A stretch of 64,000 nucleotides of DNA, taken from positions 10,788,001-10,852,000 of the forward strand of contig CM069174.1 of the NCBI GenBank assembly GCA_035221665.1. The letters are read 5' to 3'. Below are positions 1,185-64,000 of this stretch, piece by piece. A program made the translations under genes and the position numbers. This stretch comes from Okamejei kenojei. Taxonomy: Eukaryota. Position 1 is the stretch's first letter. Every line of letters begins with the position of its first letter. The notes beneath the pieces are model-generated. The model made no database searches. It worked only from the letters and a program-made list of their open reading frames with translations, and was not told the DNA's origin.

Positions 1185-1505
1185 TGTGCGAAAGAACTGT
1201 AGATGCTGGATAAAATCGAAGGTAGACACAAAGTGCTGGAGTAACTCAGCGGGTAAGGCAGCATTTATGGAGAGAAGGAATGGATGATGTTTTTCGGGTC
1301 GAGACCCTTCTTCAGACTGATGTCGGATGCAGGGTGGGAAGAAGTGTAGTCAAGATAGCTATGGGAGTCAGTGGGTTTGTAGTAGATGTCGGTCAGTAGT
1401 CTGTTACCTGCGATGGAAACGGTGAGATCTGGACACGGTAGGGAGATGTCTGAAATGGTCCAGGTGAATTTGAGTGCCGGATGGAAATTAGTGGTGAAAT
1501 TAGGG
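1185..1505 (-). mobile_element. Internally deleted Penelope-like element with 11-bp TSD
   Basis: RT fragment (FHPALKFTWTISDISL...DIYYKPTDSHSYLDY) fused to the terminal repeat unit. GCTACTAGTTA at 1174-1184 and 1506-1516. Confidence 0.82.
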
Positions 1506-1839
1506 GCTACTAGTTAGTTGTTCATGATCATAGTATTGAAATCTGACACAGTGCTGTTTGCCACTTAACCCAGTCACAGCTGCAAGTCTGAATCTCCTAA
1601 CATCCAAAGACCACTAAGAAATACTCTTGTGTTGTTTTGTTGAATTCACAACCTCCCTGTCATCCACCTAACCCCAATCTCTATCCCGTTAGAACTCTGC
1701 ACAACAACAACTTGTGTTTTTCGAGGATGTGTAAGCAACACAGATGTCAAATAAATGAACCAAATCAGGAGTTCTTTAGGTAAGTTACCAAAGGCTCGGT
1801 CAGAGAGAATCAAAACAAAATTCCAGAATGCACCGTGTC

Positions 1840-2135
1840 AACTCACCAAGACTCAGACAGCACCTTCCAACCCCATTACCTCAACCAGCTAGAAGGACCA
1901 GGACAGCAAAAACATGAACATCACCGCCTGGAAGTTGCCCTCCCATCCCCCACCGACCTGACTTGGAAATACATTATCGTTCCTTCACTGTTACTGGATC
2001 AACATCCTGGATCGACATTTGCACCTCAAGGACTGCAGTAGATCAAGAAGGCACCACCACCTTCTCCAGTTCGATTAGGGACAGGTCATTAAATGACGGC
2101 TCAGCCTGCGAAGTCCTCATTCCTTGCATGAATAC
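1840..2135 (+). mobile_element. Ancient LINE 3' end (CR1/L2-type shark repeat)
   Basis: ctgacttggaaatacatt..gttccttcactg..ggactgcag..caagaaggc..caccaccttctc. Related tails at about 5040-5105, 50710-50750 and 59030-59135. Confidence 0.55.
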
Positions 2136-2856
2136 AACACCCAGCAAGTCAAACAATATCTATGGGGATTAAAAGCGAGGCAGGGTTTAGATGCAGAGAG
2201 GTTTGCGTCGCTCATATGGAAGCAATGGCTCGCAATCTTGCAAATCTTTTGGTGCGGTGGGATGAATGCACCATTCTAACTTTCAAATCAAAACCCTGCG
2301 TCAGTTAGTGTTAGGTGACAATATTATTCCTGGTGTGCCCGCATGATTCAGCAAACTTGGAAATGTTTACCAGAACACAATATCGCGCACCCACTGTATT
2401 GTGCTGTGCCTCCCGTGAAGAGGAGGATAAGGAGAGTCTAAAATGTTGTTGCGTTCATGAGAATTTGATTCCTCATTAAAAGAGCTGAGGTGGCCTTAGA
2501 GGGAGTGAGCGGGCATTATATATCACTGTCAAAATTAAAAGGCAGTTTTAATTCGGTCAATCATTTAATGTATTTAATTGGGAGTGCGCGTTCCTGCTGT
2601 TCTCGACACACCCCTGAGTGCCAACAGAGCGAGATGAATTGATTTAAGGCCACTTGGGCCAGTTAATCAAAAATGTCCAGTTGCGTTCTAATGAGAATGG
2701 AGTGAATGCGTGCAGCGATGACCCGAATCATCTGCCCTGCTCAGTTCAGGCCGCGAGAGACTCTCGGCACATTTATATACGGAACTCATCATCTGCAGAT
2801 TTGAGAATTAACAATATGAAACAGGTTATCACAATATACGTTCTGAATAATCCAAT

Positions 2857-2960
2857 CAGTCTGAAGAAGGGTCCCGACCTGAAACGCCGCCTGTCCATTT
2901 CCTCCAAGGTACTGCCCGACCTGCTGAGTTCCTCCGGCACGGTGTTTTATCCCGATATAC
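2857..2960 (+). mobile_element. Solo Penelope-derived terminal unit (hammerhead-like core 2861-2888)
   Basis: CTGAAGAAGGGTCCCGACCTGAAACGCC...CTGCTGAGTTCCTCCGGCA. Confidence 0.65.
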
Positions 2961-3924
2961 GATGATTTCATAATCAGTTGATCAGTACTTTTGTATCGAT
3001 TTGGAGGTTTCATATCCAAAATAAGTTTATATATTCTTGAAAGTAACTGTTCTTAAAATAATTACACGAAAGTATTCAAGAATCTACCCCTGGTCAACGA
3101 CCTGAAACGCGGACTCGCTTTTTTTCTTGGCAGATGCTAACTGACCTGCTTAACATTTCCAGCATCTTCTGATTTAGTATCACAGTCTATACTTACTGGA
3201 GAATATTTCCTCCGATGTAATTTATTTTATTTTGGAGAGACAGTTATCACCTCTAGGGGATAGTTAATTTCGTAAAATGAATATTTTTTTCCTTCATTCC
3301 TCGGCACTGGCTGTCTCACACATCAATGATTTTAAACTTTTCTGTACTCCTCCTTCCCCCCCCCCCCCCCCCCCCCCCCCCCCTCTCCCCTATTTTCTTC
3401 GAACTGGATTCACAGCCCCGATCTCCTATTTAAACCACCACAGACGTGCTAAATGATTTAGCCGGCACCACTCTCAATTCCTTTAGAAAAATTAAATGAA
3501 TGAATAATAAGTGAGTCGTACAGCACGGATCAGCTCTCTGGACCAAGGTGCTCCAACTAGACTAATCCCACCTGGTCGCGTTTGGTCCATACTCCTCTAA
3601 ACCTTTCCTATCCATATACCTGTCCAAATGCCCTTTAAATGTTATGAATATCTCCACTGAAATTCATTTATTACTAATAGTTTGTGCATATTTAGTTCAT
3701 GTTCCAAATAAGTAAACGTTTTAAAATAGCGGGAATTCGCATTATAACACTTAACTGAAAATATATCGATTTCTTCAAATGCAAACGTTTGATTTGCAGT
3801 TACCCAACTTAAAAATATTTTAACATCACTAAAACTTATGTTCATTGCATGGCGTGGTTAGAATTATTCATTGATTAAGCCAGAAACAAATAAGGTAAAT
3901 GGTATTCATTTTGCAGCCACTCAC

Positions 3925-4080
3925 CGGTCTGTGTGTATAATTAGAAACCTTTGAATTGAGATTCCTGGAAAGAGTTCGACAGGATATCCAACTGGGCTGC
4001 TGATCGGTCTCTAACGCTACGATCCCGGCTACACTGAGCAGCCAGACCAGAGCCACCATTCCGAAGCATCTCTCCATCAT
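3925..4080 (-). CDS. IL23A: IL-23 p19 (interleukin-23 subunit alpha)-like, coding exon 1
   Basis: Encodes MMERCFGMVALVWLLSVAGIVALETDQQPSWISCRTLSRNLNSKVSNYTHRP: a signal peptide followed by PSWISCRTLSRNL, resembling human p19 PAWTQCQQLSQKL. Ends at a phase-0 donor CCG|GTGAGT (156 nt). Lies head-to-head with PAN2 as in human. Confidence 0.85.
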
Positions 4081-4159
4081 TCCTTCAGAAAAGTCACAGC
4101 CTAGCACGAAACTACAGCGAATTGTCGAGCACAATCCAATACAAGACACTACAGGTCCC

Positions 4160-4220
4160 GCCTTATAACCGACCTTCTTGGTACAACGGAATTTCCCAGT
4201 TCAAGTGGGGGTGGAAGTGG
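4160..4220 (-). promoter_or_regulatory. IL23A proximal promoter: TATA box, NF-kB site, ETS core
   Basis: TTATAA at 4163-4168 (about 85 nt upstream of the ATG). GGGAAATTCC on the - strand at 4188-4197 is a consensus kB site. GGAAGTG at 4213-4219. Confidence 0.7.
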
Positions 4221-4724
4221 GGTTTTCAAATAACCTACCTACACTAATTTGTCTGAATAAGGTTTTTTTTTTTAATCTACCTTAAACTAATTTACCTGTC
4301 TCACCCATGTCCACCTCTTCTGCAAAAGAAAATACAACCCACACTTTCCACTGGGGGAGTAATTTGTTTCGAAAATATGTTTCATTATGTGGGTTTGCGT
4401 CAATCGCTGGGTTACGAATTCCTGTGGTCACTTGCTTCAGAAATGTCATTGAACGATATTTTCATGAGTAGTTATTCAATTAAAGGGTAAAGGGTCACTA
4501 CAGAAATGGCAGAAAAACGCGACAAAGTGTTAAGCGTTGGAGTTTTAGCGGGATATAATTTCGCTCTCAAAAAGTAAGAAGTAGTGCGTGGAATAATGTT
4601 CCAACATATCGTATTCAGGTGAATATTAACACCATTGTTCCCTTCAAACTCTACGCGTATTTTATGTTTTTAATGATTTTTCGCTGGAGAAATTAGGCAA
4701 TGGATGCTGGAAAGTGTAGAAATT

Positions 4725-4830
4725 AACTGCAGGCTGGTTTATACCAAAGATAGACACAAAAAGCTGGCGTAACTCAGTGGGTCAGTTAGCATCTCTGAAG
4801 AGTGACCTTTCGGATCGAGACCCTTCAGAC
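4725..4830 (-). mobile_element. Solo Penelope-derived terminal unit, decayed
   Basis: + strand reads agacacaaaaagctggcgtaactcag...tttcggatcgagacccttcagac. Confidence 0.6.
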
Positions 4831-5456
4831 GGAGAATCAGGGGAGAGGGAAACTGGAAGTCAGACTGAGATGTTAGTGGCTGTTTGTTAGCTATGGGTGT
4901 CATGTCAATTTTTAAAATATATTCCGTTACAACATATTAGCAGCTGAATTTGGTGTGGGGGATGAGTGGTGGGCTTTTGAAGCACAAAAGCTTCACAAAG
5001 AGCTCTGGTGACATAATAATGATGTTAATCAAATCCAAGGGCAGTTGTGGGTAGGTAATAAATGCTGACCTTGCCAGTAATGCCCACAACTCGTTGATGA
5101 ATAAAAAGGAACTGAAAGGAATGGGTAATGGCGCTTTTGTCAGATAAAAACTGTGCCAAAAAAGCAAAATGGAACCTCTATCAACGGATAAGGTCCAGTG
5201 GCCATTTGTTTCCCTTTACAAATATACTTTGAAATATCCCCCTATTATCCAGAAACACTGTTGTAAGATGGACAGATCACCTGTAAACATTTCCAATTCC
5301 AAACATTAGGTTTTAGCAGTGCCACCACTTTTAACATATGAATCAAGGGGTCGTTTGTTTGCCTTTTTGGCCATTCATTTTTTAGAGTGTTTTATTGTCC
5401 TAGGTCACGAAACAGAACAATTAACTTCTTACTTGCAGCAGCACAACGGATATGTA

Positions 5457-7073
5457 CCAAATTAATTTCCACATACCTTGACTGCATCCTAACCCCCCCT
5501 GGTCCAATCCCTTCCTACCTATGTCCAGGACCCCTCACACGCTCTTATCTTCAATGACTTTCCAGGCCCCCACTCCCTCATCTTTACTATAGATGTCTAG
5601 TCACACTACACCTCCATCCCCCACCAGGAGGGTCTTAAAGCCCCCCGTTTCTTCCTCGACCACAGAACCAGCCAATTTCCATCCACTAATACTCTCCTCT
5701 ACCTAGCAGAGCTGGTCTTTACCCTCAACAATTTCTACTTCGACTCCTCCCACTTCCTCCAGATCCAAGGCGTAGCTACGGGCACTCGCATGAGCCCTAG
5801 CTATGCCTGTCTCTTTGTAGGGTACGTCGAACAATCCCTGTTCCAAGCATGCACTGGTCCTATCCCCGAACTCTACCTCCTCTACATTGAGGACTGCATT
5901 GGTGCTACCTCTTGCACCCATGCAGCACTCACTGACTTCATCAACTTCACCACTATTTTCCATGCTGCACTCAAATTCACGTGGACCATCTCAGACATCT
6001 CCCTACCATTTCTAGATCTCATCATCTCCATCACAGGAAACAGACTATTGACCAAAATCTACTACAAACATACTGACTACCATAGCTATCTTAACTACAC
6101 TTCTTCCCACCCTGATACTTGTAAAGACTCGACCAGGGCATTGGAGATGTCCTCATTCTTTAGGTAACGGGGGTTCCCTATTCTTCATTTATAGATGAGG
6201 CTCTCACTACGGTCTCCTCGATATCCCACAGCTCCACTCTCACTCCCCCCTCTCGTAACAATGACAGTGTCCCCTTGTCCTCACCTTCCACCCCATCAGC
6301 CATCATATACAATATATAATCCTCCAACATTTTTGCCACCTCCAAAGGGATCCCACTATTGGCCATATCTTCCCATCTCCACATCTTTCTGCTTTCCACA
6401 GAGACCGTTCCCTCCATAACTCCCTGGTCAACTCGTCCCTTCCCACCCAAACCAACCCCTCCCCAGGTACTTTCCCCTGCAACCATAGGAGATACACCTG
6501 TCCCTTTACCTCCCCCCTCGACTCCATCCAAGGACCCAAACAGTCTTTCCAGGTGAGGCAGAGGTTCACTTGCACCTCCTCCAACCTCATCTACTGCATC
6601 CACTGTTCCAGGTGTTAACTTCTCTACATCGGCGAGACCAAGCGCAGGCTCAGCGATCGTTTTGCTGAACACCTCCGCTCAGTTCTTTTTAACCAAGCTG
6701 ATCTCCCGGTGGCTCAGTACTTCAACTCCCCCTCCCATTCCTAATCTGACCTTTCTGTCCTGTGCCTCCTCCATTGTCAGAGTGAGGCCCAGCGCAAATT
6801 GGAGGAGCAGCACCTCATATTTTGCTTGGGTAGCTTACAGCCCAGCGGTATAAACATTGACTTTTCTAACTTCAGGTAGCCATTGCTCTCTCTCTTTATT
6901 CCCCCCCCCCTTCCCAGTTCTCCCACTAGTCCCATGTCTCCGCCAACATTCTTTGTCCTACCCCCTCCCCTGACATCAGTCTGAAGAAGGGTCTCGACCT
7001 GAAACGTTGCCAATTCCTTCTCTCCATAGATGCTGCCACACCCGCTGAGTTTCTCCAGCATTTTGTGTCCACC
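5457..7073 (+). mobile_element. Penelope-like retroelement (RT plus GIY-YIG), degenerate, with TATGTA target-site duplication
   Basis: RT motifs YTSIPHQEG, QGVATGTRMSPSYACLFVG, YIED, SYLNYTSSHP; GIY-YIG region IYCIHCSRC..YIGETKRRL.DRF.EH. TATGTA at 5451-5456 and 7074-7079. Confidence 0.88.
6981..7008 (+). ncRNA. Hammerhead-like core in the Penelope terminal repeat
   Basis: CTGAAGAAGGGTCTCGACCTGAAACGTT. Confidence 0.6.
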
Positions 7074-7602
7074 TATGTAAACATAGTACTATGGCAAGGA
7101 GAACAATCAGCTACCTGTTACATCTCTCTCTCCCTCCATCATTACACTGTTGATGTCTGAGTACAATGAACATCTCCTGCACACGGTGCAAACAGGACAG
7201 GTTACAGCTTCCCTGGTAGATGCCATAGCTGTGAGTACCGCTCACATATGGTTATACTGCAAAATCACAGATATCTTTGTGAGGGAATATATTAATATAT
7301 ATAATATTCTCTGTGTAAAACAGACAATTTGAACAACTCTGCTACAGGACTTGGCCAGCTGAGTCTGTGTGAGTACCATCAAACCATTCTTGGTGGTGGA
7401 CATTGAAGTTCCCATCCAGAGTACATTCTATTTCCTTGCTTCGGTGCTTCATTAAGTGTTTTTCAACATGGAGGAACACAGATTCATCAATTGAATGATG
7501 GTAGTCAGGAGGATATTTCCTTGGCCATGTTTTTCCAAATACTATAAGACTTCATGGGGTCTGGCATTAATATGGAGGACTGACTGGGCAACTCCATCCT
7601 GC

Positions 7603-10600: not shown

Positions 10601-11934
10601 GTTTTTTTTTTGTCGTGTTCATTACATTCATAATGAAAAAAATAAAACTAGAATACGAACTTCAGATCTTTTGTTACATTTACTGAAAGACACACATTAA
10701 TTTTGGTTGCTAAGGATGGAAGTTTTTTGTTAATCTGTGATCTGTGAGGTGAAAACCTGAATCCTGTTAAAAACAAACATGAGGGGTAGCCACAGAGGGA
10801 GGCAATGTGTGATTGTGAGGCCAAACTGCAGTCAATGGTCAGCTGCTTCACGAGAGATAAAGGAAAAATTGGTTAGGGGAGAAAAGTACAACAGGAAAAT
10901 TTTAAATGATATAAATCAATAAAGAAACATCACCTTGTGATACCCTCCTTAAGGGTAATTCCACAAATTGCGCAGCAACACAGAAACCTAAATCATTTAT
11001 GTGATTTCCAAAATTTTACAGGTAAATGTCGAGGAAAGTATCGTCAACAGGAACGCAGCACCAGGTGTAAAACATATTTCGTAGGCGTTGCTTCTCTTTG
11101 CAACAGATTTCTGTGAACTTAGTTGGTTGTGCCGTCACATGGTTCAACTTAGTTCCCTTGCCAAAGGAAGAAAGATTTGATATTAAATAGCACTGTGTTG
11201 TGGTTCTCAAATGCTCCATGCACACTGGATTCTGATGCAGTGCTGTAACCTTTCTCTGTTGCTTATATTGGGTTGGATTCAATTTTGATTAAACATTGAT
11301 AAAGGTCAATTTCACCTCATAGTCATAGATCAACAACATAAAAAAAATCAATCCATATTAACTGAAATTTACTAATGTGTGCCCTCCAGTAACCATAACA
11401 AAGGATCTTCCTGTTTATCGACATTCAATTTTTACCCGGTACTGAAAATGCAGATGTAAATGAGGTGGCCATCTTTACAACTGAGGTGATAGTCCAGTAA
11501 ATCTGCTTTTAGAGGGAGTATTATTTGAGGAAGGAAATTTGTGATATCATGGAATTGTTATGGTGTATTCAATCCTATCGTTGCTCCTCGTTAAGTGATC
11601 CCTTTGGCCCCATTCACCAGCTTTTTTTCTCCACAGGCGAACACATTATTGTTTTTCAAGTTTTAAAATAGTTCTTAGAAAATGTGGGACATGTTCACAA
11701 ATTAAAATCCTAAATAGGAGCAAAGCAAATTTTGATGGCATTAGACAAGTACTTGCAAAGGTTGATTGGGAGAGGCTGTTTGCAGGTAAAGGGACGTCTG
11801 GCATTTGAGAGGCTTTTAAAAGTGAGAAAGGGAGAGTTCAAGGCCAGCCAGTTCCTGTTAGAGTGAAGTGCAAGGCTGGCAGGATTATAGAACCCTGGTT
11901 AATGAAGGATATTGAGGCATTGGTCAGGAAAATA

Positions 11935-12070
11935 GAGACCCTTCTTCAGACTCAACCCTTAACGTCACCCATTACTTCTCTCCCGAGATGCTGCCTGTCC
12001 TGCTGAGTTACTCCAGCTTTTTGTGTCCATCTTCGGATTAAACCAGTATCTGCAGTTCCTTCTTACACAT
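11935..12070 (+). mobile_element. Penelope-derived terminal unit with inverted 5' end
   Basis: gagacccttcttcagact (inverted core) followed by aacgtcacccattacttctctccc...tgcagttccttc. Confidence 0.65.
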
Positions 12071-12959
12071 TGAGCTTGAGTCTGTTTCCTTCTGAGACCA
12101 GATAGTTCAACATTTAATGCAACTATCTCACACCTCGGGGGACCAAGCTTAGATCCTAACCTTGGACTTTGTTTGTGCAGAGATAATGTCTATCTAAGAA
12201 ATAGGGTCCTAGCCTGCCTAATCTCTCCTTATAGCTAAGACCATCAAGTCTTGGCAAAATCCTCGTCATTTTTGCACTCTTTCTAACTTAATGACATCCT
12301 TCCTTTAGCCTTCTCCAATGTAAAAACAACGGATAAACAATCATTGATGACCTGCCCATCTCCTGCAGCCCCACACATAGATGTCTGCTTTGGTTTCCGA
12401 GGGACTCTTTTCTCTCTCTAATTTCCTTAATGTCATATTTCCCGGCCATATCCTGCCCATTTTTGCCCTCCTGTTGTCCTTTTTAGGTATGCTCCTCAGC
12501 CCTTAAACTCTTGCAGATCAGAGGAGGGGAAGATGTCTCTGATGGTGGAATCTTCTTGAAGGTGGTGGAATTTACGAGGGATATTTGGTTGAATGCAAAA
12601 TTTCCCACAGCCAGCTATTAAACCTGGCTCGGACAAAACTCTGAACATTAATACCCCTCCATCTGTTATTTGCACTTTATTAATTTATTAATTAATGTGT
12701 GTATTTACGTATATAATTGTAGTCAATGCCTACTATGTTCTGTTGTGCTATGCAAAGAAAGAATTTCATTGTCCTGTCAGGGACACATGACAATAAACTC
12801 TTTTGTCTTGACTTGACTTTGAAAGTGAGCCCTTGCTCTGTCCAGATGTGGAAAATCGATGAGATTTGGTCAAGGGTTACATAGAAACATAGATCAGATT
12901 AGGGTTCGACCAGTTATGGTAGATTAGAAGCCATGATTCAGGAAGAATGAATTTAAGGC

Positions 12960-13665
12960 ACCTGTGTTGACAGTCTTGTTGTCAGAGCAGATGTGACGGA
13001 GACTGAGGGACTGAGAGAATGAAATGGAGTCCTTGCAGGAAGCAGAAAATATAATTGAGATAGCCGTGGGGATCTGTGGTATTGTATTGGATGTTTGTCA
13101 CTAATCTATTCACTGAGATGGAGACAGAGATCCAAGGTAAGATTGAAGAATACTTCCTCATCTTCCATCTGGGAACCTTGTAGCCTTCTGGACTCAATGT
13201 TGGGTTTATCACTGGAGATAACTTGTGCTCTCTGTATGAATTAGAAGTGGCCAGTCTAATGTAGGTCATCAATCTGTAATATTGGCCCTTTTTTGTTTTC
13301 TCTCCCTTAGCACTCGCCAAACCTGTTGGACATTTCCTACAGCTTAGCGTTTCATAGCTTTTATGTTCTTTTGTTTGTGCTCTCGCTAACTGCCTTCATT
13401 TTATAGCTTTTATGATTCTTTCGTCATGCTAACTTTCTCTCATTTCCATTAACATATCAGACCATCTACAGCTTATCTGTCTGACAACCCCAGCCGCACC
13501 CTATCAGAGCTATTCCCTTTCTCCTATCCATTCCCTCCCACTCTATTTGCAATTTAAATCTAACCCCTTTTTCCAGTTCTGATGAATGGTCTTCAAGTTG
13601 AAGTATGAATTGTTTCTCTTTCCATGGATGCAGCCTAACCTGTTGAGTGCTTACAGCATTTTCAA
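12960..13665. mobile_element. Old rearranged Penelope-like remnant
   Basis: - strand RT piece (ISVNRLVTNIQYNTTDPHGYLNY), then a + strand 3' part with a decayed terminal unit at about 13575-13665. Confidence 0.6.
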
Positions 13666-13839
13666 ATTTTTTTTAGATGGCTTCTTTAAACTTTTTTGGA
13701 AGTTAATTTTCCCAATAAATAAGTTAAGGGCATGACCTCCAAGCTTCTGTCCTATCGCTGGATTCACTGTTTCCCGCTACTCTTTTGATCCTCTCCATCT
13801 TTCATTGGCTTATCTTCATCTCAATCATCATCTGTCAAA

Positions 13840-14830
13840 CTTTGTTTAGTTTAGTATTTTGTCACGTGTACCGAGGTACAGCAAAAAGCTTTCTTGTTGC
13901 ATGCTATCTAGTCAGCGGAAAGACTACATGTGATTGCAGTCAAGCCGTCCATAGTGCACAGATACAGGATAAAGGGAATAATATTCAGTGCAAGATAAAA
14001 TCCAGTAAAGTCTAATTAAAGATAGTCTGAGGGTCACCAATGAGGTAGATGGCAGATCAAAACTGGGTGAAAGGATGGTTCAGTTACCCAGTAGCAGCTT
14101 GGAAGAAACTGCCCTGGAATCTGGAGGTGTACGTTTTAATTTCTGTACCTCTCGCCTGATGGGAGAGGGAACAAGAGAGAGTGTCTGGGGTGAGACTGGT
14201 CCTTGATTATGCTGGTGGCCTTCCGGATGCAGCATGAAGTGTAGAGGGAGTCAATGGAAGGGATGTTTGTTTGTGTGATGGTGAGAGTTGTTGGGACATG
14301 CCAAACTTCCTAAGCCTTCCAAGGAAGTAGAGGCATTGGTGTGCTTTCTTGGCTGTTGCTTCGACATGGCCGGTTCAAGACAAGTTGCTGGTAATATTTA
14401 CTCCTTACATAAAACTTGAAGCTTTCAACCATCTCTATTTCGGCACCGTCAATGTGTACTGCTTTGCTTCCTAAATACAATCACAATCTCCTTTGCCATG
14501 CTGACATTGTGGGAAAGGTTGTTGTCTTGGCACCTGGTTACGAAGTTCTCAATCTCCTTCCTGTACTCCGTCTCGTCATTATTTGATATCCGACCCACCA
14601 CGGTGGTGTCGCCTGCAAATTTGTAAATTGAGTTGGATTTGTATTTGGCTGCACAGTTGTGGGTGTACAAGGAGTAAAGAAGGAGGCTGAGAATGCATCC
14701 ATGCAGGGCACCAGTGTTGAGGATTATCGTGGAGGATGATTTGTCCCCTATCTTCACTGATTGTGGCCTGTTGGGTCAGGAAGTCTGAGGATCCAGTTGC
14801 AGAGGTGAGTGCTGACTCCAAGTTTGGAGA
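13840..14830 (-). mobile_element. Degenerate Rex1-like LINE 3' fragment
   Basis: LNTGALHGCILSLLLYSLYTHNC...KFAGDTTVVGRISNNDE; (CTAAA)n-like tail near 13840. Confidence 0.85.
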
Positions 14831-14989: not shown

Positions 14990-15275
14990 TGTGCGAGAGT
15001 CAATTCTCCGTGCGGCTTCCGTACACGTGCCAGTATAAGGCGGTATACAGTATAGCCCCGCCTTCTTCCACCGCTTCCATTGGTTGAAACGTATAAACAA
15101 TAATGGTTTGCAAACAGCTGATTGGATCATGTGGCTGTCAATCTGGACAGAGGTAGCTGCGGTTGCGAGTTCTGGGGAGTTGGTTCGGTTTTGAAGCTTC
15201 GGCCTGTGCCGCCTGATTGTTTTATGTTTTATCTGTATTCAGTGTGAGATGATAAATGTCAAAGAAGAAGCGCTG
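14990..15275 (+). promoter_or_regulatory. PAN2: Probable PAN2 promoter and non-coding first exon
   Basis: Local CpG enrichment, GC box GCCCCGCC at 15055-15062, inverted CCAAT boxes (ATTGG) at 15079 and 15121, candidate donor CTG|GTAGGT at 15275/15276. Confidence 0.55.
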
Positions 15276-15594: not shown

Positions 15595-15700
15595 CAGTCT
15601 GAAGAAGGGTTTCGACCCGAAATGTCACCCATTCCTTCTCCGCAGAGGTGCTGCCCGTTCCCCTGAGTTACTCCAGCACTTTGTGGCCATCTGTGGTTTT
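15595..15700 (+). mobile_element. Solo Penelope-derived terminal unit (hammerhead-like core 15599-15626)
   Basis: CTGAAGAAGGGTTTCGACCCGAAATGTC...CTGAGTTACTCCAGCACTTTGTG. Confidence 0.7.
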
Positions 15701-17974: not shown

Positions 17975-18023
17975 CTTTGACGTGTTTAGAAATACATGGA
18001 AGATTGGACTTTGGAAGTCAGTG
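17975..18023 (+). other. PAN2: Candidate PAN2 5'UTR exon (49 nt)
   Basis: Acceptor ctcttattttgcag and consensus donor GTG|GTAAGT, located between the promoter and coding exon 1. Confidence 0.5.
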
Positions 18024-18071
18024 GTAAGTGTAAATCAAATGCTTGCATCAATGGTCCTTGGTTTATTTTTT

Positions 18072-18515
18072 TTAGCCCAAAGGATGCAGACTCCCCAAGC
18101 GGAATATGAGGTGCTGTTCCTCCAACTTGCGGTGTAACATTGAATTTTCTCAATTCTGTTGAACATTGAATTTTCTCAATTCTGTTAACCCTTGCTGTCT
18201 CCTCCCCTTCCCACCTCTCCCTCAGCCCTCGGGCCCTGGCATTCTCTCTATCTCTATCTCCCTCCCCCACCCTAGTCGCACTAGCTTCTCATTTTCACAC
18301 CACAAACAGCTTACAATGGCTTGTTCCCTTTATCATCGATACTTTTTTGCATATCTTTCATTCATTGTTCTTTATCTCTCCACATCACCGTCTATATCTC
18401 TCGTTTCCCTGATCCCTGACCAGTCTGAAGAAGGGTCTCGACCCGAAACGTCGCCTATCTCCTTCGCTCCTTAGATGCTGCTGCACCCGCTGAGTTTCTC
18501 CAGCATTTTGTGTAA
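18072..18515 (+). mobile_element. Penelope-like 3' fragment with inverted 5' piece
   Basis: Homologous to 6790-7070. 18075-18132 is inverted. The terminal unit has a perfect hammerhead-like core. Confidence 0.8.
18425..18452 (+). ncRNA. Minimal type I hammerhead-ribozyme-like core
   Basis: CTGAAGA-A-GGGT-CTCG-ACCC-GAAAC-GTC: conserved CUGANGA and GAAA boxes, stem II hairpin, palindromic ACGU stem III, GUC cleavage triplet. Stem I is weak. Confidence 0.65.
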
Positions 18516-18549
18516 CCCCCTGCTTGCATCAATGCTTCATTTATACTCT

Positions 18550-19490
18550 TACAGTACAGAAACTGGCCCTTCAGCCCAGCACACCCATGCTGACCAAGGT
18601 GCCCCATCTACACTTGTCCCAACTCGTGTTTGGCCCATATCCCTTTAAACCTTTCCTATCCATGTACCTGTTCAAATGTCTTTTAAATGTTTTTATAGTT
18701 TCTGCCTCAACTACCATACCAACTAATTGCTTCCATATACACACTTCTGGCAGCTCATTCCATATACACACCACTCTCTGTAGAAAAAGTTGCCCCTCAG
18801 ATTATCATGAGATCTTTCCCCTCTAACCTTGAGGACCCCTGGTTCTTGATCCCCCTACTCTGTGTATTTAAAAAAAAAAAAAAGTCTGTGCATCTACTGT
18901 ATCTATTTCCCTCATGATCCTGTACACCTGTATAAGATCACCTCTCATTCTCCTATGCTCCACGGAATACAGTCCTTGTCTGCCCAACCTCTCCCTACAG
19001 CTCAGACCTGCAAATCCTGGAAACGTCCTTGTACGTTTTCTCTGCGCTCTTCCCATTTTAACATCTTTCCTACATACCACGACAACCAAATCTGAACACA
19101 ATACTCCAACTGTCACCTCACCAGTGCCTTGTACAGCTGTAACATATCACCCAAGTTCTGTACTCAAAACCCTGACTAATGAAGGCCAATGTGCCGAAAG
19201 CCTTCTTGACTAACTTATTCACCTGTGCCGCCACTTTCAAGGAACTATGTACCTGCACTCTTAGATCCCTCTTCTCTCCAAATCTTCCCAGAGCCTTGCC
19301 ATTCACTGAGAAGGTCCTGCCCTGGTTAGACTTCCCAAAATGCAACACCTCCCATTTATCTGCATTAAACTCCATTAGCCATTCCTCTGCTCACTTGCCC
19401 AACTGATCAAGATCCCGTTGTAATTTTTGATTACCATCTTTGCTATCTAGAATACCACCCTCTTTAGTGTCATCTGCAAACTTACTAATC
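18550..19490 (-). mobile_element. CR1 LINE 3' fragment
   Basis: MEFNADKWEVLHFGKSN; RRMRGDLIQVYRIM. Confidence 0.88.
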
Positions 19491-50400: not shown

Positions 50401-53400
50401 CAAGGTAACATTAATATAAATTAGTGGGTGAGATCTGAACCATTGATCCAGTAACAAGGGGTCCAGTGGTCCAATCCCACCACAACAATGTTGGATTTAA
50501 AGTTTTAATAAATAATCTGATTTGAAAAGCTGATATGATATAATGATTAAGAAGCTGCCATTATATATATTTTTTAAAAGCTGACTCGCTAATGTCTTGG
50601 AGAAGGAAATCGGCTGATCTTATTTTACCCAGTCTGGAGTATAAGTGAATCCAGAAACAGGAATGCAATAGACTCCCAACTAACCTCTGAAATGGATTGA
50701 GGGCACATGGCGATGAGTAATAAATCCTTGCCTTGCCAGTGGCAAATAAATCAAAAAATACCCTGAACCATTTTTGCTTTCTCTTTATTTCTCTCTGTCG
50801 AGTAACTATCTCATTTCCCTTTTAATTTAAACACAATAGCCTAGCTGCATTTGGGACAAATGTTTTAACTCTGATCCCAAATTAATGTTGCTTTTGTACA
50901 GAAAGAGACACAAAATTCTGGAATAACTCAGTGGGTCAGGCAGCATCCCTGGAGAACATAGATGGGCGATGTTTTGGGTCAGATCCGTTGTTCTCCAATT
51001 ATGCTGCCTGTCCCGCTGAGTTACTCTCGCATTTTGTGTCTGTCTTTGGTATAAACCAGCATCTGCATTTCCTTGTTATTATTCTCTTACAATCTCACTG
51101 TGCTCTTTGGCTACTCGGTGAAATTTCACACAGTAGTGTTGTTCAAAAAGTGCAATTTAATCATTGCCAGTCCTTCCCAAATGGCAGCAAATCTACAAGG
51201 GCAGCCACTGATCTGCAAGAGATGTCTGATTTGCTGCAATACATCCACAAGTTTAAAATTAAACTGTATATGTTGAAGCAGGCCTACCAGCATCGAAAAG
51301 ATTGAAATATAAAAAGCCCCTAAAACTGCTGACATAAGAAATGTTCAATTTGAGGATGTTTATTGAGTCATATTTCATATGCCTTCAGGAGCCCTACCGA
51401 CCCCCCCATACTCCCCAACTGTGTCCCTTTCATCTCTCTCATAAAGGCTGGTTAAAAACTGGTGGGAGGGAAAAGGCTGGGAAAACAAACTAGTCATTTT
51501 TTAGGGGGAGCCCAGCTTGCTTCAGGTCCAAATGTGGAAGTTAGATGAGTTTCAGTATGACCAGCATTATTTTTGATTTTGTTATGTCATTAAGTGACAT
51601 AACTTTATTTTGATTAAGCAAGCAAATATTATGTTTCATTATTACTCTGTGGAGCTTTAAGTGTCAATCACATGAAGATCAGACCAGGGTAATGGGTGGC
51701 AGGTCTCCTTGCTGGAAGCATTAGAGAACCAGTTCTACTTCTGCAATAATAGGACACCTTTTGAATGGCCCAAGTTATTCATTCTCACAGTTTCCTTTGG
51801 GGTTTGAAATCTTCACTTGCAGGTTTAAGTCCCATAACTGTGTCACTCAACTACCATTGCTCCATGACTGGAGTTGCTTGCAGCTAATGAACAAGTGGGT
51901 GTGGTTATTTTCCCACTTTGCTTCTCTCTAAAATGGTGATTCACATTTGGGTAATTTCTATAGGAGCCAATGTCATCCAAGTTATTGTTTTCAGGCGAAT
52001 AACAGCAGTACATTTCTGGAGGGCATATTAGAAAGCAAATCTGGTCTTGCTTTGAATTGCCACCACAAGTTAAAAGGGACCCTGACTTCTAATTGATCCT
52101 CGTTCAGACAAGCTGAAGATGATTCTTTGCTCTTATTGTATCACATCCAAATTTCGTTCCAGCACATTGCAGTACACTTTTGATAACTGAGCAGACTTGG
52201 GGGTTTTGGAAATGGAAATCTTTTTTCTAAAAATGAAAAATGGCTGGTAAAACTGCAGTGAGGTTATTTGATCCACTGCCCATAGTTGCATCCCTATGCT
52301 AATCATGTGGCTACATTAATGTTTTGTAGCTGTCTGGCTGCTAACAACCTTTGTTGGCTCCCTGACAATTTTGTGAGCAGATAGAGCGGCAGTCAGGCCT
52401 CTATATGTTTCAGCCTGCAGGCTTGCTGGACTTTAACAGCTTGTGCTGTCGTACGCCTGTTTCACTGTTGCTAAGTGTCTCAAAGCTTTTTTTTAATGTT
52501 TTTTTAATCAAAATATTAATTAAATAAAAACATGCTCATAGAATTAAAGAACCAAAAAAGCAGGATAAGCTTAATGAATGTTGCCAATCCCAGTCAGATT
52601 AAAGGAGCTACATGAAATGTGCCAGCTGCATCCTGTGTAAAACAGAGGTACAATATAATTACATTCAGCACCTTGGTTCAGCCAGTTATTGAATGCTCTG
52701 AGGTAAATCCATGAATGGAGCAAGACATTTATTATGCCTATATCTGACCTCCAGTGCTTTTGTACTTTTGTGCTGCAGTGTGCAAGCGTTACAGTTGGAA
52801 TGCACTGATAAGCGTGTTGCAGTTTCTTTAGCACAATCTGGCTCAATGTTGCGAGTGAGTGAAGCTCCTAATTGGCAAAATCTACGTAGAAAATATGACC
52901 CATGGGGTTAATGTAACAGGATGCAGCTGCTCTCTGTGAATGGTTCGTTGTTAGATAATTGGGGCGTGGTGTATTTGAGAATAGCATCCACAATTTGTAT
53001 TGCTATTGCAATAACATAACCTTCAAAATAAAAAGTGTAAGCAAAGATTAAAGAAACATTCGTGTCAATGCCTTGCAAACGCAAAGACTTTAATAGATTG
53101 ACATTATCAGGCTATTAAAAATGACTTTCAAAAATATTCTCCTCTATCTGTTCAAAATACTAAATCCAATTCCAAGTTCTAGCTTCAGGAAAGTTTGAGT
53201 TACTTATATAAATTTTAGGGTTGGAGTAATATATTTTTCTGCCTATTTCCATTTTCAGATTCCAAAGGAGCAAGTGATTGACACTGTGTACTTGTTTCAT
53301 ATGCCTCGGAAGAGGATGATCTCGCTGCGTTTCCTTGCATGGTATTTTCTAGGTCTGTATGTGTTACAACCCATTTCTGTAGATCAACATGCATCATTCC

Positions 53401-56400
53401 AAACCTTTTTTGCATTCATTGTGACTTATCAGTGGGTTTAAGAAGTTAAAATTGCTGATTGCATTGAGTTACAAAAATAGATGGGAAGGCATGTTGTGAT
53501 GAAGAGATTTGTACTGGTTATGGATGGGTTGAGTGAGTGGTGAAATATTACCAAATGGAGTTTTATATGGGAAAGTGAGATCATGCATTTCGGTAAGAGG
53601 AACCAAATGGCAAATTATTATTTAAATGGATAGAGAGTGCATATGAATAGAGCACAGAGATTTGGATGTTCAGGTACATGAATATCAATAGGTTAGCAGG
53701 CAGGTGCAGCAAATGGTCAAGAAGGCAAATGACATATTGGCCTTTATTGCAAGATGGTTGGAGTTTAGAAATTAGAAAATATTATTACAAATGTACAGGG
53801 TTGAGGTGGGGTACTGGGCACAGTTTTGGTCCCATTACTTTAGAAATGATACTAGAATTGGAAGCAGTCCAAAAGACATTCAAGAGTAGACACAATGTGC
53901 TGGAGTAACTCAGCGGGTGAGGCAGCATCTCTGGAGAGAAGGAATGGGCAACGCTTCGGGTTGAGACCCTTCTTCAGACATTCAGGAGTTCAATTCCTAG
54001 GATGAGAGGACTATTCTATCATGAGCGGCTAAAGTAATTAAATCTACATTCTTTGGAGTTTAGAAGAATGAGAGGTGATGTTGCTGAAACATATTCGATC
54101 CTTGAGGGGCATGATAGTGCAGATGTTGAGATGCTCAAGTGGACATAGTTTTAAATGACCACCCCCTAATCCTGTAACTGACGTGTGTCGGGACATCTCA
54201 CAGAGGGTGGTGAATCTCTGGAATTCTCTATCTCGGAGGATCTTGGAGGCTGGGTCATTGGTTTTTAAAGAGGTGGATAAATATTTGAAATACTGGAATT
54301 GAGAGTTATAGGGAACTGGCACAGAAGAGATGAGGTCTGGGACAGATCAGCCATTGTCATATTGAATGATGGGGCAGGGCTGAGTGGTTTACTCCTGCTC
54401 CTATGTTCTTATGTTTTACTGAATGGCATGACATTGAGTACTGCAGTTAAACCTACAGGAGAAAGGTGACTGCCCAGCATTTCAGTAGTTTGGGCTTTTG
54501 TCCATGAGATTGCTGCCTGATATGGGAAAGCTGAATCTTGTGGATCTTGAAGATCCCATACCTGGTTAATGTTAATTAATATTATCTGGGGCAACAACAG
54601 AGGCACAGCAATTGGTCTTCATACTGTTTAGCATCCTTCCAAAATGAGAGGGGCCAATGTTCAGCTTCAAATGTGACTTTTTCCCAATTAAAATCATCTG
54701 CTAATGCTTAGTGCGTAGGTTCAAGTGTAAAATGACTGCTTTGTTAATAAGAACTGGTGCATAACACAATTGGGTGTTAGTACTTGCAGGAAAGGTTGGG
54801 AAGAATTGGACCAAAAATAGACAAGCTGGTAGAGAGGGGGTTTAGTTAGGCCTCTGTTGGAGGATGTTGTCCAGCCTTGCAAAATGTGCTCAAATATGGA
54901 GAGATTGATTGGTGCTTTGTTGATTTCTTGGATAGAACTCAAAATTCAGGGTGAAACGCATGATAGCATAGAGGATGCCCGTACAGCACTACAACTCTAT
55001 CGAAAGTACCTGGAATTGACCAAGCACGGCATGGACGTAGATGAATTCCGAAAAATACTGAAAGGTCTATATGAGAAGGGCAGAAAGATGGACTGGAAAG
55101 TACCAGAGTCTGAAGAAGTCCAGAGCAGTCCAAAAAGTAAGTGCCTCTTTTATTTCTTATTTTTGTGTAAAGAGATTTTATTGCATAAACTTAAAATCTA
55201 AGAGATGCTTATCAAAAGATAATGCTGAAGCCTTGGAAAATCAGACTTTTGGGAACTGCATGGACATTGACCTTTACCTGCAGCACACTGCTGAGGTAAA
55301 ACTGTGCTGACTAAATTGTATTGAATTTGGTGATTCAATTTTCTGGAACATGGGCTCAGCACAAAACCCTCCTTTAATTCAGTACTAATTAGCTATTATT
55401 TAGTCCACAAGGTGGAGTGAGAAATGCCATGCAGGGAAAGTTTTTCACTATCTGATTATGCTTACTTTTACCTCTCTGACTTGGTATCAGCCCCTCCTTA
55501 TCTTCTATCTTGCTGATGAGTTCCTTTTCTGCTGTCACCCTTGCCCTTGGAAGTCTCTTGTAAATTGCTCTTTTAATATTTCACTTTTATGGTGACATTG
55601 CACAATTTCTCTTCAGTATCACTAGGTCTGATCAATGATTAATCCCCTGCTTGCCTGCTGCTGCTCTGCCCACCCCACGCCCTCTCCTCTCCTCTATCCA
55701 CTGTTCAAAATCTGCTTTACTCACTGTTTGCAAAACCCTTCAAGATTATTATTTTTTAAGCCATCCAGTTAATGCTGGCACTAAATGCCCAAAGCATAAT
55801 ATGTACCCTTTTCTCAGCACTGATGTTTTCTGTCTGAAACTTTATTTAACTTTTATTTTTAGTGTTTGTTTCATTCTATTTTAAGTCTATTTTGTTTGAT
55901 TAGTAAGTGCAGAATTAGATGAGTGCAAAGATGTTAACTGTCTCAAATCCAGCAGTTGAACTAAACTGCAGAATATTTTAATAGTGTCTGAAAATTTGGC
56001 TGGGTTTGTATTGTATGATAGGATTGATCCAGCCATCTGGATATGCCTTGATATACTCTGAACTAGTGCCTCGCAAGACTAAGAGTAGAAGGTTGCCACT
56101 TGAATAACAGTGATTCTGAGAATATTGGGTTGCATAATTTTGAGACTCAACGTGATTCATTTCTCAAATGTTTTGTTTATAAGTAGCTTTTTGGCATGCT
56201 AACCCCTTTAGCCGACTTCATCTGCAACCCCACCCTACCCGAAACTGAAACAAAATGCTTGGTAGAATGATGTAGTGATGCAGGCATTTATTTTCTTGGT
56301 AGTTGTTCATACTTGTCATAATTTGTCTGGAGTGATCTTTCACATTGTCCATTCTCTGTAGGTAGCAAAAGTTGTTGAATGTTGCATGAATTAAGAATAT

Positions 56401-59008: not shown

Positions 59009-60429
59009 TTAATGGATCTAATATGGAATTCCCTTCCCAACAGCACCTTCGGAGCAACTGTAGTGGTCAAATTCAGCTCACCACTACCACCTTAAGGGCA
59101 ATAAATGCTGGCCTAAGTGATGCCCAGATCCTATAAATACATTTTTTAAAGGATAATCTGTTTGCAGTGAATGCAAGCTTGGCATGTGAGTTTCTAAATG
59201 AATTATTGAATTTGTTTTGAATGTTGTACATGGGACCCATCATGACCCAAATGCTGTTGTGGGAGACGTTACTCCCACGACAACTCTAGTATGTGGACCC
59301 AGTTTTGACTTTCAGCAAAACGCTTTTCTTTCAGCGCAAACTCTTTGAGAGTCAAACTTACCTAACTAATCTGGTTGCGCAGATTTAAATCCAGAACTCT
59401 TCTGAAGTTTATCTCATGTTTCCCAGAATCCTGATCCTTGGGTTAGCATGTATGTTGCAGAAGTACAATCCAAATACTATTGAAGTTGAAAGGGATGTAC
59501 TCCAATTCTATTATGCTCTAATTCCTTTACCGATATTTTATAAATGATTAATGTTTGACAATGGGTTACAATGTGAAACATAGCCAATTAACCCACATTA
59601 GACAATATGCTTTCCTGACTTAATTGCACTTTGTGTTTGCTATCACTGCTACAATATCTGATCTCTGAGTTCTCAGCTCTTTCTTTGAGAAGTACTTTTT
59701 ATGCTCTCAGCTCTCATATCGTGGTCCCAGCAACCACGTTAAACTTTCATTATTGAAGAACAATGTACAATTTTGGGGCTTCAAAGAGTTCAGCAGCTGA
59801 GGATTGAGAAGAATGTTTAGCACCAAAGCAGACATTGGTCTCCTTTGATGTAGCATTGACTGTATAACTTGGAAGTGCTGCCTGAATTCCATTATACATG
59901 TCTTAATGTTTGTTCATACACATGGAAAATACCAAGGCTGCCACAGTTCATAACATAGCGTGGTGGAGAGCAAGGGTAATAAAATGCATGACTCACTCAA
60001 TTTATTGTACAAAACATACCATACTGTTTTTTTTCACATTCTGCAAACATTGTTCTGTTTATTCAATTTGTGTCTATCATACTTCCCAGTTTTTAAGCAT
60101 TATAAGGTGGACTCAAAGTAAAACCACCATTCCTTCTCTCCAGAGATACTGCCTCGCGTCTGCACACATACTAGGTAGACTATTGCTTTGTCCTTTCCGT
60201 GCATTTATTGTTCTCTTGCTCTTAGCTCATTCAACTGTGTAGCCACGTGTTGGATGTACTATGTGTTGTCAAGCATGGCTAATATCCTTTGCCCCTCACT
60301 GCTTTATCACTCCCCATTCTGGGATGTAAATTGGCTATCTTGCAAGAGACAGGTTTTCTTTTTTCTTTGTCCTTATTCAGTCCCTGAAGCATAAAGCAAC
60401 ACTGAATAGCAAATTTATATTAGCCCCAA

Positions 60430-61480: not shown

Positions 61481-61599
61481 TGCCCTAATGAAGTGTCTGA
61501 AGCAGATAGGGCTTTACCTGGTGAGATTATGTTGACTGTCTGAATTTCTTCTGCACTAATTTCTTCTCAGTTTTTCCATTGTCATTTATTTCTTCATCA

Positions 61600-61925
61600 T
61601 GTCATAGAGTGATAGTGTGGAAACAGGCCCTTCGGCCCAACTCGCCCACACCAGCCAACAATGTCCCAGCTACACTAGTCCCACTTGCCTGCACTTGGTC
61701 CATATCCTTCCAAACCTGTCTAACTGTTTCTTAAACAATGGGATAGTCCCAGCCTCAACTGCCTCCTCTAGTGGCTTGTTCCATACACCCACCACCCTTT
61801 GTGTGAAAGAGTTACCCCTCGGATTCCTATTAAATCTTTTCCCCTTCACCTTGAACCTATGTCCTCTGGTCCTTGATTCCCCTACTCTGGGCAAATGGCT
61901 CTGTGCATCTACCCAATCTATTCCT
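61600..61925 (-). mobile_element. CR1 LINE 3' end
   Basis: GESRTRGHRFKVKGKRF..FTQRVVGVWN. Confidence 0.85.
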
Positions 61926-63401
61926 TAAGTCTTCCTTTCCATTTTGTTATTTGTCCATGTGATTAAATTGATATGGTCAGTAAGTCTGACTTCTGTATAT
62001 GTCACTCAGAATGTATTTTGAACAGGACAAGTTTAGGAAGCCATTCTTATAATAAATCTTTCTCCCCAAACTAATTTCGCAGCTGAATTTTCAAGTTAGA
62101 TTTGTGTTCACTATGCTCTGAATTGATGTCCTCCTCCAGTTCCTTCATACAGGGGGTTTATACTGTGGCATATACAGCCGAAATTTTAGTTCACTTTTGA
62201 CAAAGACATTCCCATGTTTAGATTGTGCTTGCAAGTAGCAAGAGAAGCAGGGTCACTATTATTCCATGAGAGTGAGAAAGGCCCCACTTTTGCCAATTCT
62301 CCCAGTTTCCACCAAGCTAATGATCGAAGCCTTGAATATACTCAATGACTGAGCCTCTGCAACTCTCTGAGGAGTGGAGAATTCCAAAGATTCACAATCC
62401 TCCGAGTGGAGCAATGTCTCCTGATTCACAGTCCCATATGGACAACCCCCTTATCCTGAGCCTGTTAGTTTTATAATCAACTGCCAAGAGGCACTTAGCA
62501 ATACCTCTCAGAATCTTGAGTCCCAATTAGATTACTTCTCACTCTTCATAGGGCAATCTCCATAATTTACATTGGCCATCTTACTTCAGGTAATGCAGGA
62601 GGTCATGGTACAGGGAGTTCTGGTTTCAAAATTAGAGCAAATTTCAACATTAGAATAAGGAAGATAAAAATAAAAAAAACAAAATATTTTTTGATGTTAT
62701 CCGTCTCAAAATAATAAAATGCAGAACTTAAAATCAAACTCTTTGACCTTTTGGGATCAAATTACAACAAAAGCCTCAAACTTTTTTCTTTTTTACATTC
62801 CACATGTAAAACATTACCTAATTTGCTTCCACAACATTTTATTCTCTACTAACATAGTGAACAATGTCTAAAAGTGACCCAATATATAACATGCGCTGAA
62901 TGTCAACTTGCACTGAGGTAACGCTATCTGTGAACTAATTAAAATGTTTGATTCTGTAAGTACAGCCCAAGAGTGTTAAGTTTCAGCTTGGAATACTGCA
63001 CAATGAAGGGTGTGGCAAAATTCTTTTTACATTGTCCCTTTACTTTATCTCTTGTTCCTCCAAGGAGATGAGTGAAGACACTGTTCCCATATCCTCAGAA
63101 TTAAAATGCAAACTTTTGTTCCTAGCTTTTCATTCCAGAGCCTTTAACACAATGGAACTTAATCTAGTTTCCCTCAATCATATGATCTTGAACTTTGCAA
63201 AACCCAAAGCCTGGTGTTTTGCCCAGTTTGCTTTGTGCCCTGACCTTTGGGCTTTGAGCCTTTGTCTAGGTTTCTTAAGTTAGACCAGACATTAAAAAGC
63301 ATTCTGTAGATAAAATAAGGCACCAACAATTAAAGCAGCAATTATTGGCTTTTCTCTTAATCTTTAAATTTTGTGAAAAATGTTGAGTTCGATGTTATGT
63401 T

Positions 63402-63530
63402 TAAGAAGGAACTGCAGATGCTGGAAAATCAAAAGGTAGACAAAAATGCTGGAGAAACTCAGCAGGTGAGGCGGCATCTATGGAGCAAAGGAAATGGGCA
63501 ACGTTTCGGGACGAGACCCTTCTTCAGACA
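63402..63530 (-). mobile_element. Solo Penelope-derived unit with 10-bp TSD
   Basis: ATGTTATGTT at 63392-63401 and 63531-63540; hammerhead-like core at 63500-63527. Confidence 0.8.
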
Positions 63531-64000
63531 ATGTTATGTTACTTTATGTAAAACAGATTACAAAAGGCAGTTTAATTTCAAACAATTACAATTTATTTTT
63601 GTTATTACCTGGGCAAATGCAGCAATTTGCCTTGGTTACTGTGTGTTTTAAGTTCAACCACCACTAGGCACTGACTTGAAGGAACGGATTGCCTTGTAGA
63701 GAATTAATCTTGTCAAATAAAGCAGACACATGCTAATAGGCTGCACTGCCCATAGTTGAGGAGACAACTCTAGTACAAACTTGTGCTCTGTTTAGTGTTT
63801 GTCAGATACTGTTTCTGTGTAGATATTAGGCTCTACTGTACCATCATCATCGAACAAATGGACACTCACATCCTAGTCTTATTCACATGAAGCATGGAGA
63901 CTTGAGCAAAGCACCAGTGGGCCCTTGGATCTTTATGTCAGAGATCAATGGCATTCACAGAAGAAATAAATTATATCACTTTTAAACGAATGAAGCTTTC

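Follow-up and report, generated by a model that had tools for sequence, protein, structure and literature searches.

Minimal type I hammerhead motifs were described in 2014 in the terminal repeats of Penelope-like retroelements of fish, amphibians and reptiles, mostly as single dispersed copies (PMC4209133); cartilaginous fish are absent from Table S1 and Fig. S3 of that study. Copies of Penelope-like elements carry inverted 5′ pieces and a tail of 30-40 bp at one end (PMC8557442, PMC3846280, PMC2377424). In PAc, an element of Anolis carolinensis, the tail equals the distance between two internal start sites of the reverse transcriptase (RT), while the hammerhead cuts only with protein and cutting is not needed for insertion (PMC11167929). 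Monomeric and tandem hammerhead repeats related to these terminal repeats, or pseudo-long terminal repeats (pLTRs), have been reported across vertebrates, including one chondrichthyan (bioRxiv 10.64898/2026.07.22.740005). The role of the hammerhead in Penelope-like elements is stated to be open (PMC8557442, PMC11167929). Here we have analysed a 64,000-nt stretch of the Okamejei kenojei genome (contig CM069174.1, positions 10,788,001 to 10,852,000), referred to as the window, which a preliminary description had proposed to contain a dispersed, non-autonomous family of 90-130 bp units with a minimal hammerhead core. We found that this unit is almost certainly the 3′ terminal repeat of a Penelope-like element of cartilaginous fish, in our placement a Neptune-like one. 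Our best explanation, to which we assign a probability of about 0.7, is that the units are pLTR insertions made by the RT and endonuclease of that element, with the hammerhead copied uncut. The association of a Penelope repeat with a minimal hammerhead is a known one, of which the window provides a cartilaginous-fish example. In the literature searched, which lacked most subscription papers and repeat databases as well as the supplements of bioRxiv 10.64898/2026.07.22.740005, we found no description of this family, nor of its short stem I or its 5′ junctions at the hammerhead edge.

A hammerhead-bearing unit and its parent element

We scanned the window with a 27-letter core pattern, allowing up to 3 mismatches, and obtained eight near-intact cores compared with none in 100 dinucleotide shuffles. 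These cores lie at 1289-1315(-), 2861, 6981, 15599, 18425, 26316, 53951-53977(-) and 63501-63527(-), and only three of them match the pattern without a mismatch. BLAST and a profile search extended the set to decayed, inverted and partial copies, the profile search adding the fragments at 27436 and 60126, so that 15 loci were reached at E<1e-3 in 64 kb. This count is partly circular, because 14 of the window's own unit pieces went into the profile; in a profile search of the reversed window the best E was 1.5. The cores listed in the preliminary description all lie where it placed them, and the decayed or rearranged copies that it placed near 3095, 11935, 13580 and 50970 are present. Its copy at 4805-4828(-) is in place too, with a first core box that carries a 3-nt deletion. 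The high copy number also held, the proposed density of about one per 5 kb becoming approximately one locus per 4.3 kb, unevenly distributed and with none from 27.5 to 50.9 kb. The 15 loci are as follows.

1185-1505 (-): RT fragment, homologous to 5943-6114, fused to a unit with a 37-nt tail; core C3 at 1315
2856-2950 (+): stand-alone unit starting ~5-8 nt before C3 (2861); U16.1 changed
3092-3184 (+): older 5′-truncated unit beginning inside stem II
4715-4870 (-): unit with a partial tail and a pyrimidine-rich, UTR-like (untranslated region) stretch upstream; first core box with 3 nt deleted
5457-7073 (+): 5′-truncated Penelope-like element with RT and GIY-YIG remnants, 3′ UTR and a unit without tail
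11934-12066 (+): tailed unit with its 5′ inversion in stem II; the inverted segment (11934-11952) reaches back to 2-3 nt before C3
12502-13679 (no single strand): older Penelope-like remnant with inverted RT pieces (12502-13167, -), endonuclease (13115-13213, +), UTR-like tract and decayed terminal unit (13565-13679, +)
15595-15692 (+): tail-less stand-alone unit whose start is 4-5 nt before C3 (15599); core complete, wobble palindrome
18054-18520 (+): inverted endonuclease piece (~18075-18134), 3′ UTR and a unit without tail; the only flawless core
26312-26386 (+): stand-alone unit starting ~5 nt before C3 (26316); 12-nt internal deletion, palindrome broken
27436-27478 (+): piece of an older unit, from its 3′ module (profile E 3e-4)
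50889-51080 (no single strand): head-to-head inverted pair of 5′-truncated units, with a tail on one arm only
53888-53977 (-): stand-alone unit without tail; A15.1 changed
60126-60155 (+): mid-unit fragment (profile E 2e-4)
63402-63530 (-): stand-alone unit with tail, starting at most 3 nt from C3 (63527); core boxes complete, one stem II mismatch

Neither BLAST nor the profile search found a tandem (head-to-tail) pair of units in the 64-kb window. An Rfam search returned no hammerhead among 10 matches up to E=5, and its weak hairpin matches at 50921-51026 correspond to the inverted unit pair. The motif scan had 0 matches in viral contigs and 6 loci in metagenome contigs, none of them belonging to this Penelope family; the latter served as folding controls.

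The locus at 5457-7073 ends in the unit, which forms its last ~97 nt, as had been proposed. Upstream of it lie an RT remnant (~5493-6179), a linker, a GIY-YIG endonuclease remnant with stops and a deletion (~6265-6876) and a pyrimidine-rich 3′ UTR, followed by the tail-less unit with its core at 6981-7008. This order, RT and then a C-terminal GIY-YIG endonuclease, is that of endonuclease-bearing Penelope-like elements. The endonuclease remnant is nearest to proteins of rays and sharks (57-65% identity); the Pfam matches to RVT_1 and GIY-YIG are weak and below the Pfam cut-offs, and a PDB sequence search with the RT remnant gave no real match. A C-x4-C-x2-C linker is intact in five of eight aligned homologs and decayed in the rest, and the window copy has lost the second Cys through a one-codon gap. 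Since a CX2-5CxxC linker before GIY-YIG marks the Neptune and Nematis clades (PMC8557442), the element may be called Neptune-like by this linker motif, which Nematis shares. Coding remnants are joined to the unit at 4 of the 15 loci (1185-1505, 5457-7073, 12502-13679 and 18054-18520); the 4828 copy has a UTR-like stretch, and the remaining ten lack coding or UTR homology. No full-length copy, that is, an open reading frame between two pLTRs, occurs within the window. In a shark homolog (P0007) the last 20 residues form a read-through tail that resembles a translated hammerhead core; this single peptide suggests that the same motif stands behind related elements.

Set against described elements, that of the window resembles the Neptune clade (PMC8557442) in its RT with C-terminal GIY-YIG, its CX2-5CxxC linker, its hammerhead pLTR, its inverted 5′ pieces and its tail, and differs in that no microsatellite targeting was seen in the window copies. 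With PAc it shares a tail that arises from two 3′ ends, a hammerhead upstream of the RT starts and an uncut template, whereas PAc is of the Poseidon clade and the window element has a Neptune/Nematis-type Cys linker (PMC11167929).

Ends of the insertions

Exact flank duplications of at least 9 bases were present at 4 of 11 insertions, compared with 1 of 110 cross-pairings. Target-site duplications of 11 bp (1174-1184, 1506-1516), 14 bp (18040-18053, 18521-18534) and 10 bp (63392-63401, 63531-63540) flank the insertions at 1185-1505, 18054-18520 and 63402-63530, respectively, and one of 14 bp with a single mismatch, overlapping the first core bases, flanks 53888-53977. The 6-bp duplication around 5457-7073 (5451-5456, 7074-7079) is on its own not above the null, and the same cross-pairing test gave nothing above the null for the 2861, 4828, 11935, 15599, 26316 and 50970 copies, that at 15599 having a candidate duplication of 9 bp. 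At the other end, two 3′-end classes lie ~35 nt apart, with a tail on five of the nine ends listed (~34-38 nt where complete), and this optional tail explains the 90-130 bp range of the unit. Also present are 5′ truncation, inverted 5′ pieces and target-site duplications of variable length, as in endonuclease-bearing Penelope-like elements. The units are thus shown to be independent insertions by retrotransposition, and since their duplications, optional tail and inverted 5′ pieces are those of published Penelope-like insertions, a separate non-autonomous family is not needed to account for them.

The 5′ edge lies within ~8 nt of C3 in six copies (2861, 11935 through its inverted piece, 15599, 26316, 53977 and 63527), and in the 53977 and 63527 copies the duplication pins the junction to within 3 nt. 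We also compared public contigs over 18250-18540 (32,473, 11,106, 18 and 15 contigs from 4 of 24 runs), which cannot reveal RNA ends. Among the loose ends listed, the best-supported upstream ones are at 18421 (404 and 235 contigs), 18422 (106) and 18423 (107), with a low agreement of the loose letters at 18421-18423 (0.33-0.43), and none falls at the cut site, 18453; the summed contig depth rises 2-3-fold at 18420. Many stand-alone copies, in the window and in hundreds of contigs, start 1-5 nt before C3 and not at the cut site. The sequence at 18420-18426 fits the initiator consensus, with +1 at 18422. For a downstream promoter element the agreement with the consensus was partial, and we did not count it. 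For PAc, the accessible part of PMC11167929 describes no sharp 5′ boundary at the hammerhead.

Rare contig joints lead from 18449-18463 or from the unit end back to 18417-18430, producing short tandem duplications of either the core or the entire unit, tail included, which are possible seeds of retrozyme-like arrays. We considered these head-to-tail joints as cleavage footprints and rejected them, as most of those listed end several bases past the cut or at the unit end; joints at 18452 amounted to one contig each in two runs, too few to use. Non-LTR retrozymes (PMC7229834; bioRxiv 10.64898/2026.07.22.740005) are, like the units, short, non-coding, hammerhead-bearing and pLTR-related. In contrast to retrozymes, which form tandem arrays whose units in most groups measure hundreds of bp, many with canonical active hammerheads, the window units occur singly and dispersed, show target-site duplications and have a minimal core; tandem hammerhead repeats appear as rare joints in the public contigs.

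Conservation and predicted folding of the hammerhead core

The unit has the features of the minimal hammerheads of PMC4209133, namely the core boxes, an extra base between A9 and 10.1, G10.1-C11.1, a palindromic 15.2/16.2 without a real stem III and a terminal-repeat position, and it likewise occurs mostly as single dispersed copies, which that study ascribed to truncated elements. The assignment to minimal type I cores of a Penelope-like terminal repeat was thus upheld, both core boxes and the palindrome being present. In the eight aligned copies, the core boxes (C3-A9, G12-A15.1, U16.1 and H17) are complete in five, a complete core coincides with a pairable 15.2/16.2 palindrome in four, and one, at 18425, is flawless; in the 1315 copy the core is broken after GAAA. 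The flawless copy has C3 at 18425, stem II at 18433-18444, the palindrome at 18448-18451 and a stem I of 2 bp, and its predicted C17 falls at 18452, the position after which the preliminary description expected the cut. Stem II pairs in 31 of 32 cells and is kept, as had been noted, much of the variation reported for its loop being CpG decay. The weakness of stem I was likewise borne out, with 2 bp in seven of eight copies (that at 1315 put in register) and 3 bp in one, so that seven copies fall short of the ~3 bp or more of a minimal type I motif. With its U-R closing pair, this 2-bp helix differs from the ~3 bp of the PMC4209133 consensus and from the 3-6 bp of the vertebrates listed there.

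In the eight aligned copies, cells differing from the majority numbered 2 of 88 in the core boxes, 23 of 143 in the stretch just after the cut and 24 of 228 in the 3′ module, the copies having been chosen by core match, which favours core conservation. Across subfamilies the core boxes are thus more conserved than the stretch just downstream (2/88 vs 23/143). Covariation of stem pairs was not seen, with 0 two-sided compensatory changes in six pairs over eight close copies. Among the contig variants listed, all those reaching 4% or more within 18419-18452 are C>T or G>A at CpG sites; subfamily differences start right after 18452, and 18484-18510 is, among the variants listed, free of such differences as well. 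Together with the conservation across subfamilies, this pattern indicates a core kept unchanged among the masters. In the older copy at 13570, the free position 7 of the core is a U, and remnants of a longer stem I are visible.

In folding predictions, the hammerhead dimer lay 13-27 kcal/mol above the best fold in all four scorable copies. The gap was 3-14 kcal/mol in three unrelated control motifs with a 4-bp stem I and 13-23 kcal/mol in two with 1-3 bp; the controls were the metagenome motifs (L002 not being scorable), whose activity is itself putative. Stem II had a probability of at most 0.03 in contexts of at least 58 nt. The predicted consensus fold is another hairpin, formed by the purine-rich core and the pyrimidine tract past the cut, with 31 of 32 cells paired between the 5′ strand of stem II and positions 1.1-1.4; a competing hairpin that buries the core sets these copies apart from the hammerheads of PMC4209133. 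Its z-scores are unremarkable (-1.8 to +2.3, and -1.0 to +1.3 in a second computation). We rejected as unproven the idea that the hairpin was selected as an 'off' state, there being no two-sided change and no greater stability than in shuffles; splicing that completes stem I was rejected too, no donor or GT..AG joint having been found among the joints listed for the public contigs.

Protein-free self-cleavage is doubtful because only four of eight cores are full, stem I has 2 bp, covariation is absent and the rival hairpin is predicted to be favoured; on these predictions we consider it quite likely that little or no protein-free cleavage occurs. Moreover, every full copy spans both sides of the cut site, which implies that its template was uncut. 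The term 'ribozyme-bearing' used in the preliminary description is thus apt for the motif and doubtful for activity, and the hammerhead would be at best a slow, dimer- or protein-dependent ribozyme, probably dead in most genomic copies.

Two of the four complete-core copies, 15595-15692 and 18054-18520, lie 2.8 kb apart on the probable sense strand of the 5′ introns of the host gene PAN2, whose 5′ exons are only inferred; if the 15599 and 18425 copies cut as a pair, the PAN2 pre-mRNA would be severed. Their persistence in PAN2 hints at low activity. As for the metagenome motifs, L001, L002, L005 and L006 (cores at 339, at 401, on the minus strand and at 401) belong to another high-copy-looking repeat that has this core and stem II together with a palindromic stem III of 8 nt and, in three of four, a stem I of 4 bp; this repeat is predicted to fold well as a dimer.

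Origin of the stand-alone units and the host locus

According to our best explanation, the units would be insertions made by target-primed reverse transcription, with the GIY-YIG endonuclease and RT supplied by the element itself. By analogy with the Anolis element, the RT would start inside the RNA at two sites, ~90 and ~125 nt past the first base of the hammerhead, giving the two length classes of the unit. Priming on the upstream repeat of a transcript that starts just before the hammerhead would then run off the template and leave a stand-alone 90-130-bp unit, whereas priming on the downstream repeat would yield a longer, variably truncated copy. The hammerhead itself would have been inherited from active ancestors and kept in the masters, although its form in these subfamilies is predicted to need help in folding. 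The stand-alone units would thus probably be by-products for the most part, rather than a separate family. That the 5′ edge reflects RT run-off at the 5′ end of uncut RNA is a more tentative proposal, consistent with Penelope transcripts starting inside the upstream repeat (PMC2377424), which we place slightly below even odds because the initiator-like motif is common by chance and also resembles a splice acceptor.

Several observations weigh against this explanation. Duplications of at least 9 exact bases are absent at 7 of 11 insertions. The loose ends at 18421 derive in part from other subfamilies with a different UTR (pyrimidine-rich consensus), and, among the loose ends listed, only those at 18422-18423 in one run look like random flanks. 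The initiator-like word occurs at 1.3% of positions and, as a CAG behind a pyrimidine tract, is equally splice-acceptor-like. Nearest-neighbour energies omit the tertiary contacts of the core, motifs with a 2-bp helix I exist in flies and a tunicate (PMC4209133, Fig. S3), and a core conserved between subfamilies speaks for some function of the motif in the master elements.

The distinct non-autonomous family of the preliminary description was not substantiated, since 4 of 15 loci carry coding remnants and stand-alone and attached copies are intermingled. A SINE-like (short interspersed nuclear element) family with an internal promoter, its own master copies and re-mobilisation in trans by the Penelope RT would nevertheless agree with the excess of stand-alone over attached units (10/15 loci without coding or UTR homology), with the identity of only 71-84% between the 2861, 15599 and 26316 copies and the others, with the promoters found within pLTRs (PMC2377424) and with the sufficiency of pLTR sequences for trans mobilisation in a rotifer (PMC3846280). 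Against it, the 53977 and 63527 copies match attached ones at 81-88%, close to the 87-92% of the attached copies among themselves, and we found no feature that only the short copies have. The 53977 copy is 88% identical to the attached 6981 and 87% to the attached 1315, and the 63527 copy 87% to 6981 and 85% to 18425, so two of the five stand-alone copies compared group with the attached ones and three are more distant. We regard such a family as unlikely, and it and our best explanation can hold together. Less likely by a little is a one-step route to it, in which transcription in this fish lineage begins right at the hammerhead's first bases, internal priming generates the very numerous units directly and the core stays fixed with the ribozyme off. 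Changes past the cut would then have shortened stem I and created the hairpin with stem II, switching the ribozyme off, and the core would have been retained either to act as a switch triggered by protein or to serve as a signal, as a promoter or for RT binding. If true, this route would amount to a natural experiment on whether cutting is what maintains Penelope hammerheads.

An active dimeric ribozyme that defines the unit, self-cleaving and circularising into retrozyme-like RNAs that are copied into the genome, is very improbable. The scarcity of core-box changes, the CpG-only variants at 18419-18452, the palindromic 15.1-16.1 and the rare head-to-tail joints, of which 11 of the 12 listed return to 18417-18430, speak for it. 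It is opposed by the lack of a tandem pair in the window, by ends that avoid the cut site, with no 18453 loose end listed, and by a 2-bp stem I with a preferred rival fold and no compensatory change in eight copies. In addition, Anolis cleavage is protein-dependent and dispensable for insertion, with no reads ending at the cut (PMC11167929), and eight of nine Xenopus dimers failed to cleave (bioRxiv 10.64898/2026.07.22.740005). The 5′ clustering could instead stem from RT stalling, from microhomology at the structured, purine-rich core or from a CAG 3′ splice site, with no transcription start involved. Three copies break inside stem II (11950, 50985 and 3095), the 53977 junction and its target have four bases in common, attached copies have a pyrimidine tract and CAG upstream of the core, and a pLTR intron of Drosophila virilis ends at helix I (PMC4209133). 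Stalling, however, is expected at the 3′ edge of a structure, yet the copies hold the whole core; as to splicing, no common upstream exon appears (agreement 0.33 at 18422-18423) and GT..AG ends occur in 0 of the 15 joints listed, only one small run being certain RNA. We consider these origins of the edge unlikely, to about the same degree as the SINE-like family.

The family, with very many copies that combine a conserved catalytic core, a shrunken stem I and sharp insertion ends on both sides, could offer a way to decide between cutting and a role as start or binding signal as the reason for keeping the motif, and to learn how short non-autonomous units originate.

The host gene PAN2, which encodes a deadenylase, runs on the + strand with ~24 coding-exon matches between 20180 and 55140; the best named matches of its exon at 22843-23012 are in a shark and a ray. 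A CpG-rich, promoter-like stretch at ~15000-15250 and an exon-like AG..GT segment at ~17975-18025 may represent its 5′ end. The 26316 copy sits in a PAN2 intron on the sense strand, and 23 kb of PAN2 introns (27500-50900) are without a unit copy, compared with nine loci in the first 19 kb of the window. A 777-codon open frame with endonuclease and RT domains at 27775-30108(-) is the remnant of a long interspersed nuclear element (LINE), with related pieces near 14521-14762 and 42436-43215. Other dispersed repeats, probably SINE or LINE ends of families D8, D10, D11, D13, D15 and D20, occupy 3541-3643, 18536-18790, 21334-21458, 24651-24763, 31612-31991, 33053-33302, 34627-34772 and 61597-61903. 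Finally, 21729-22122 contains a 107-nt inverted repeat whose arms are 93% complementary and 180 nt apart.

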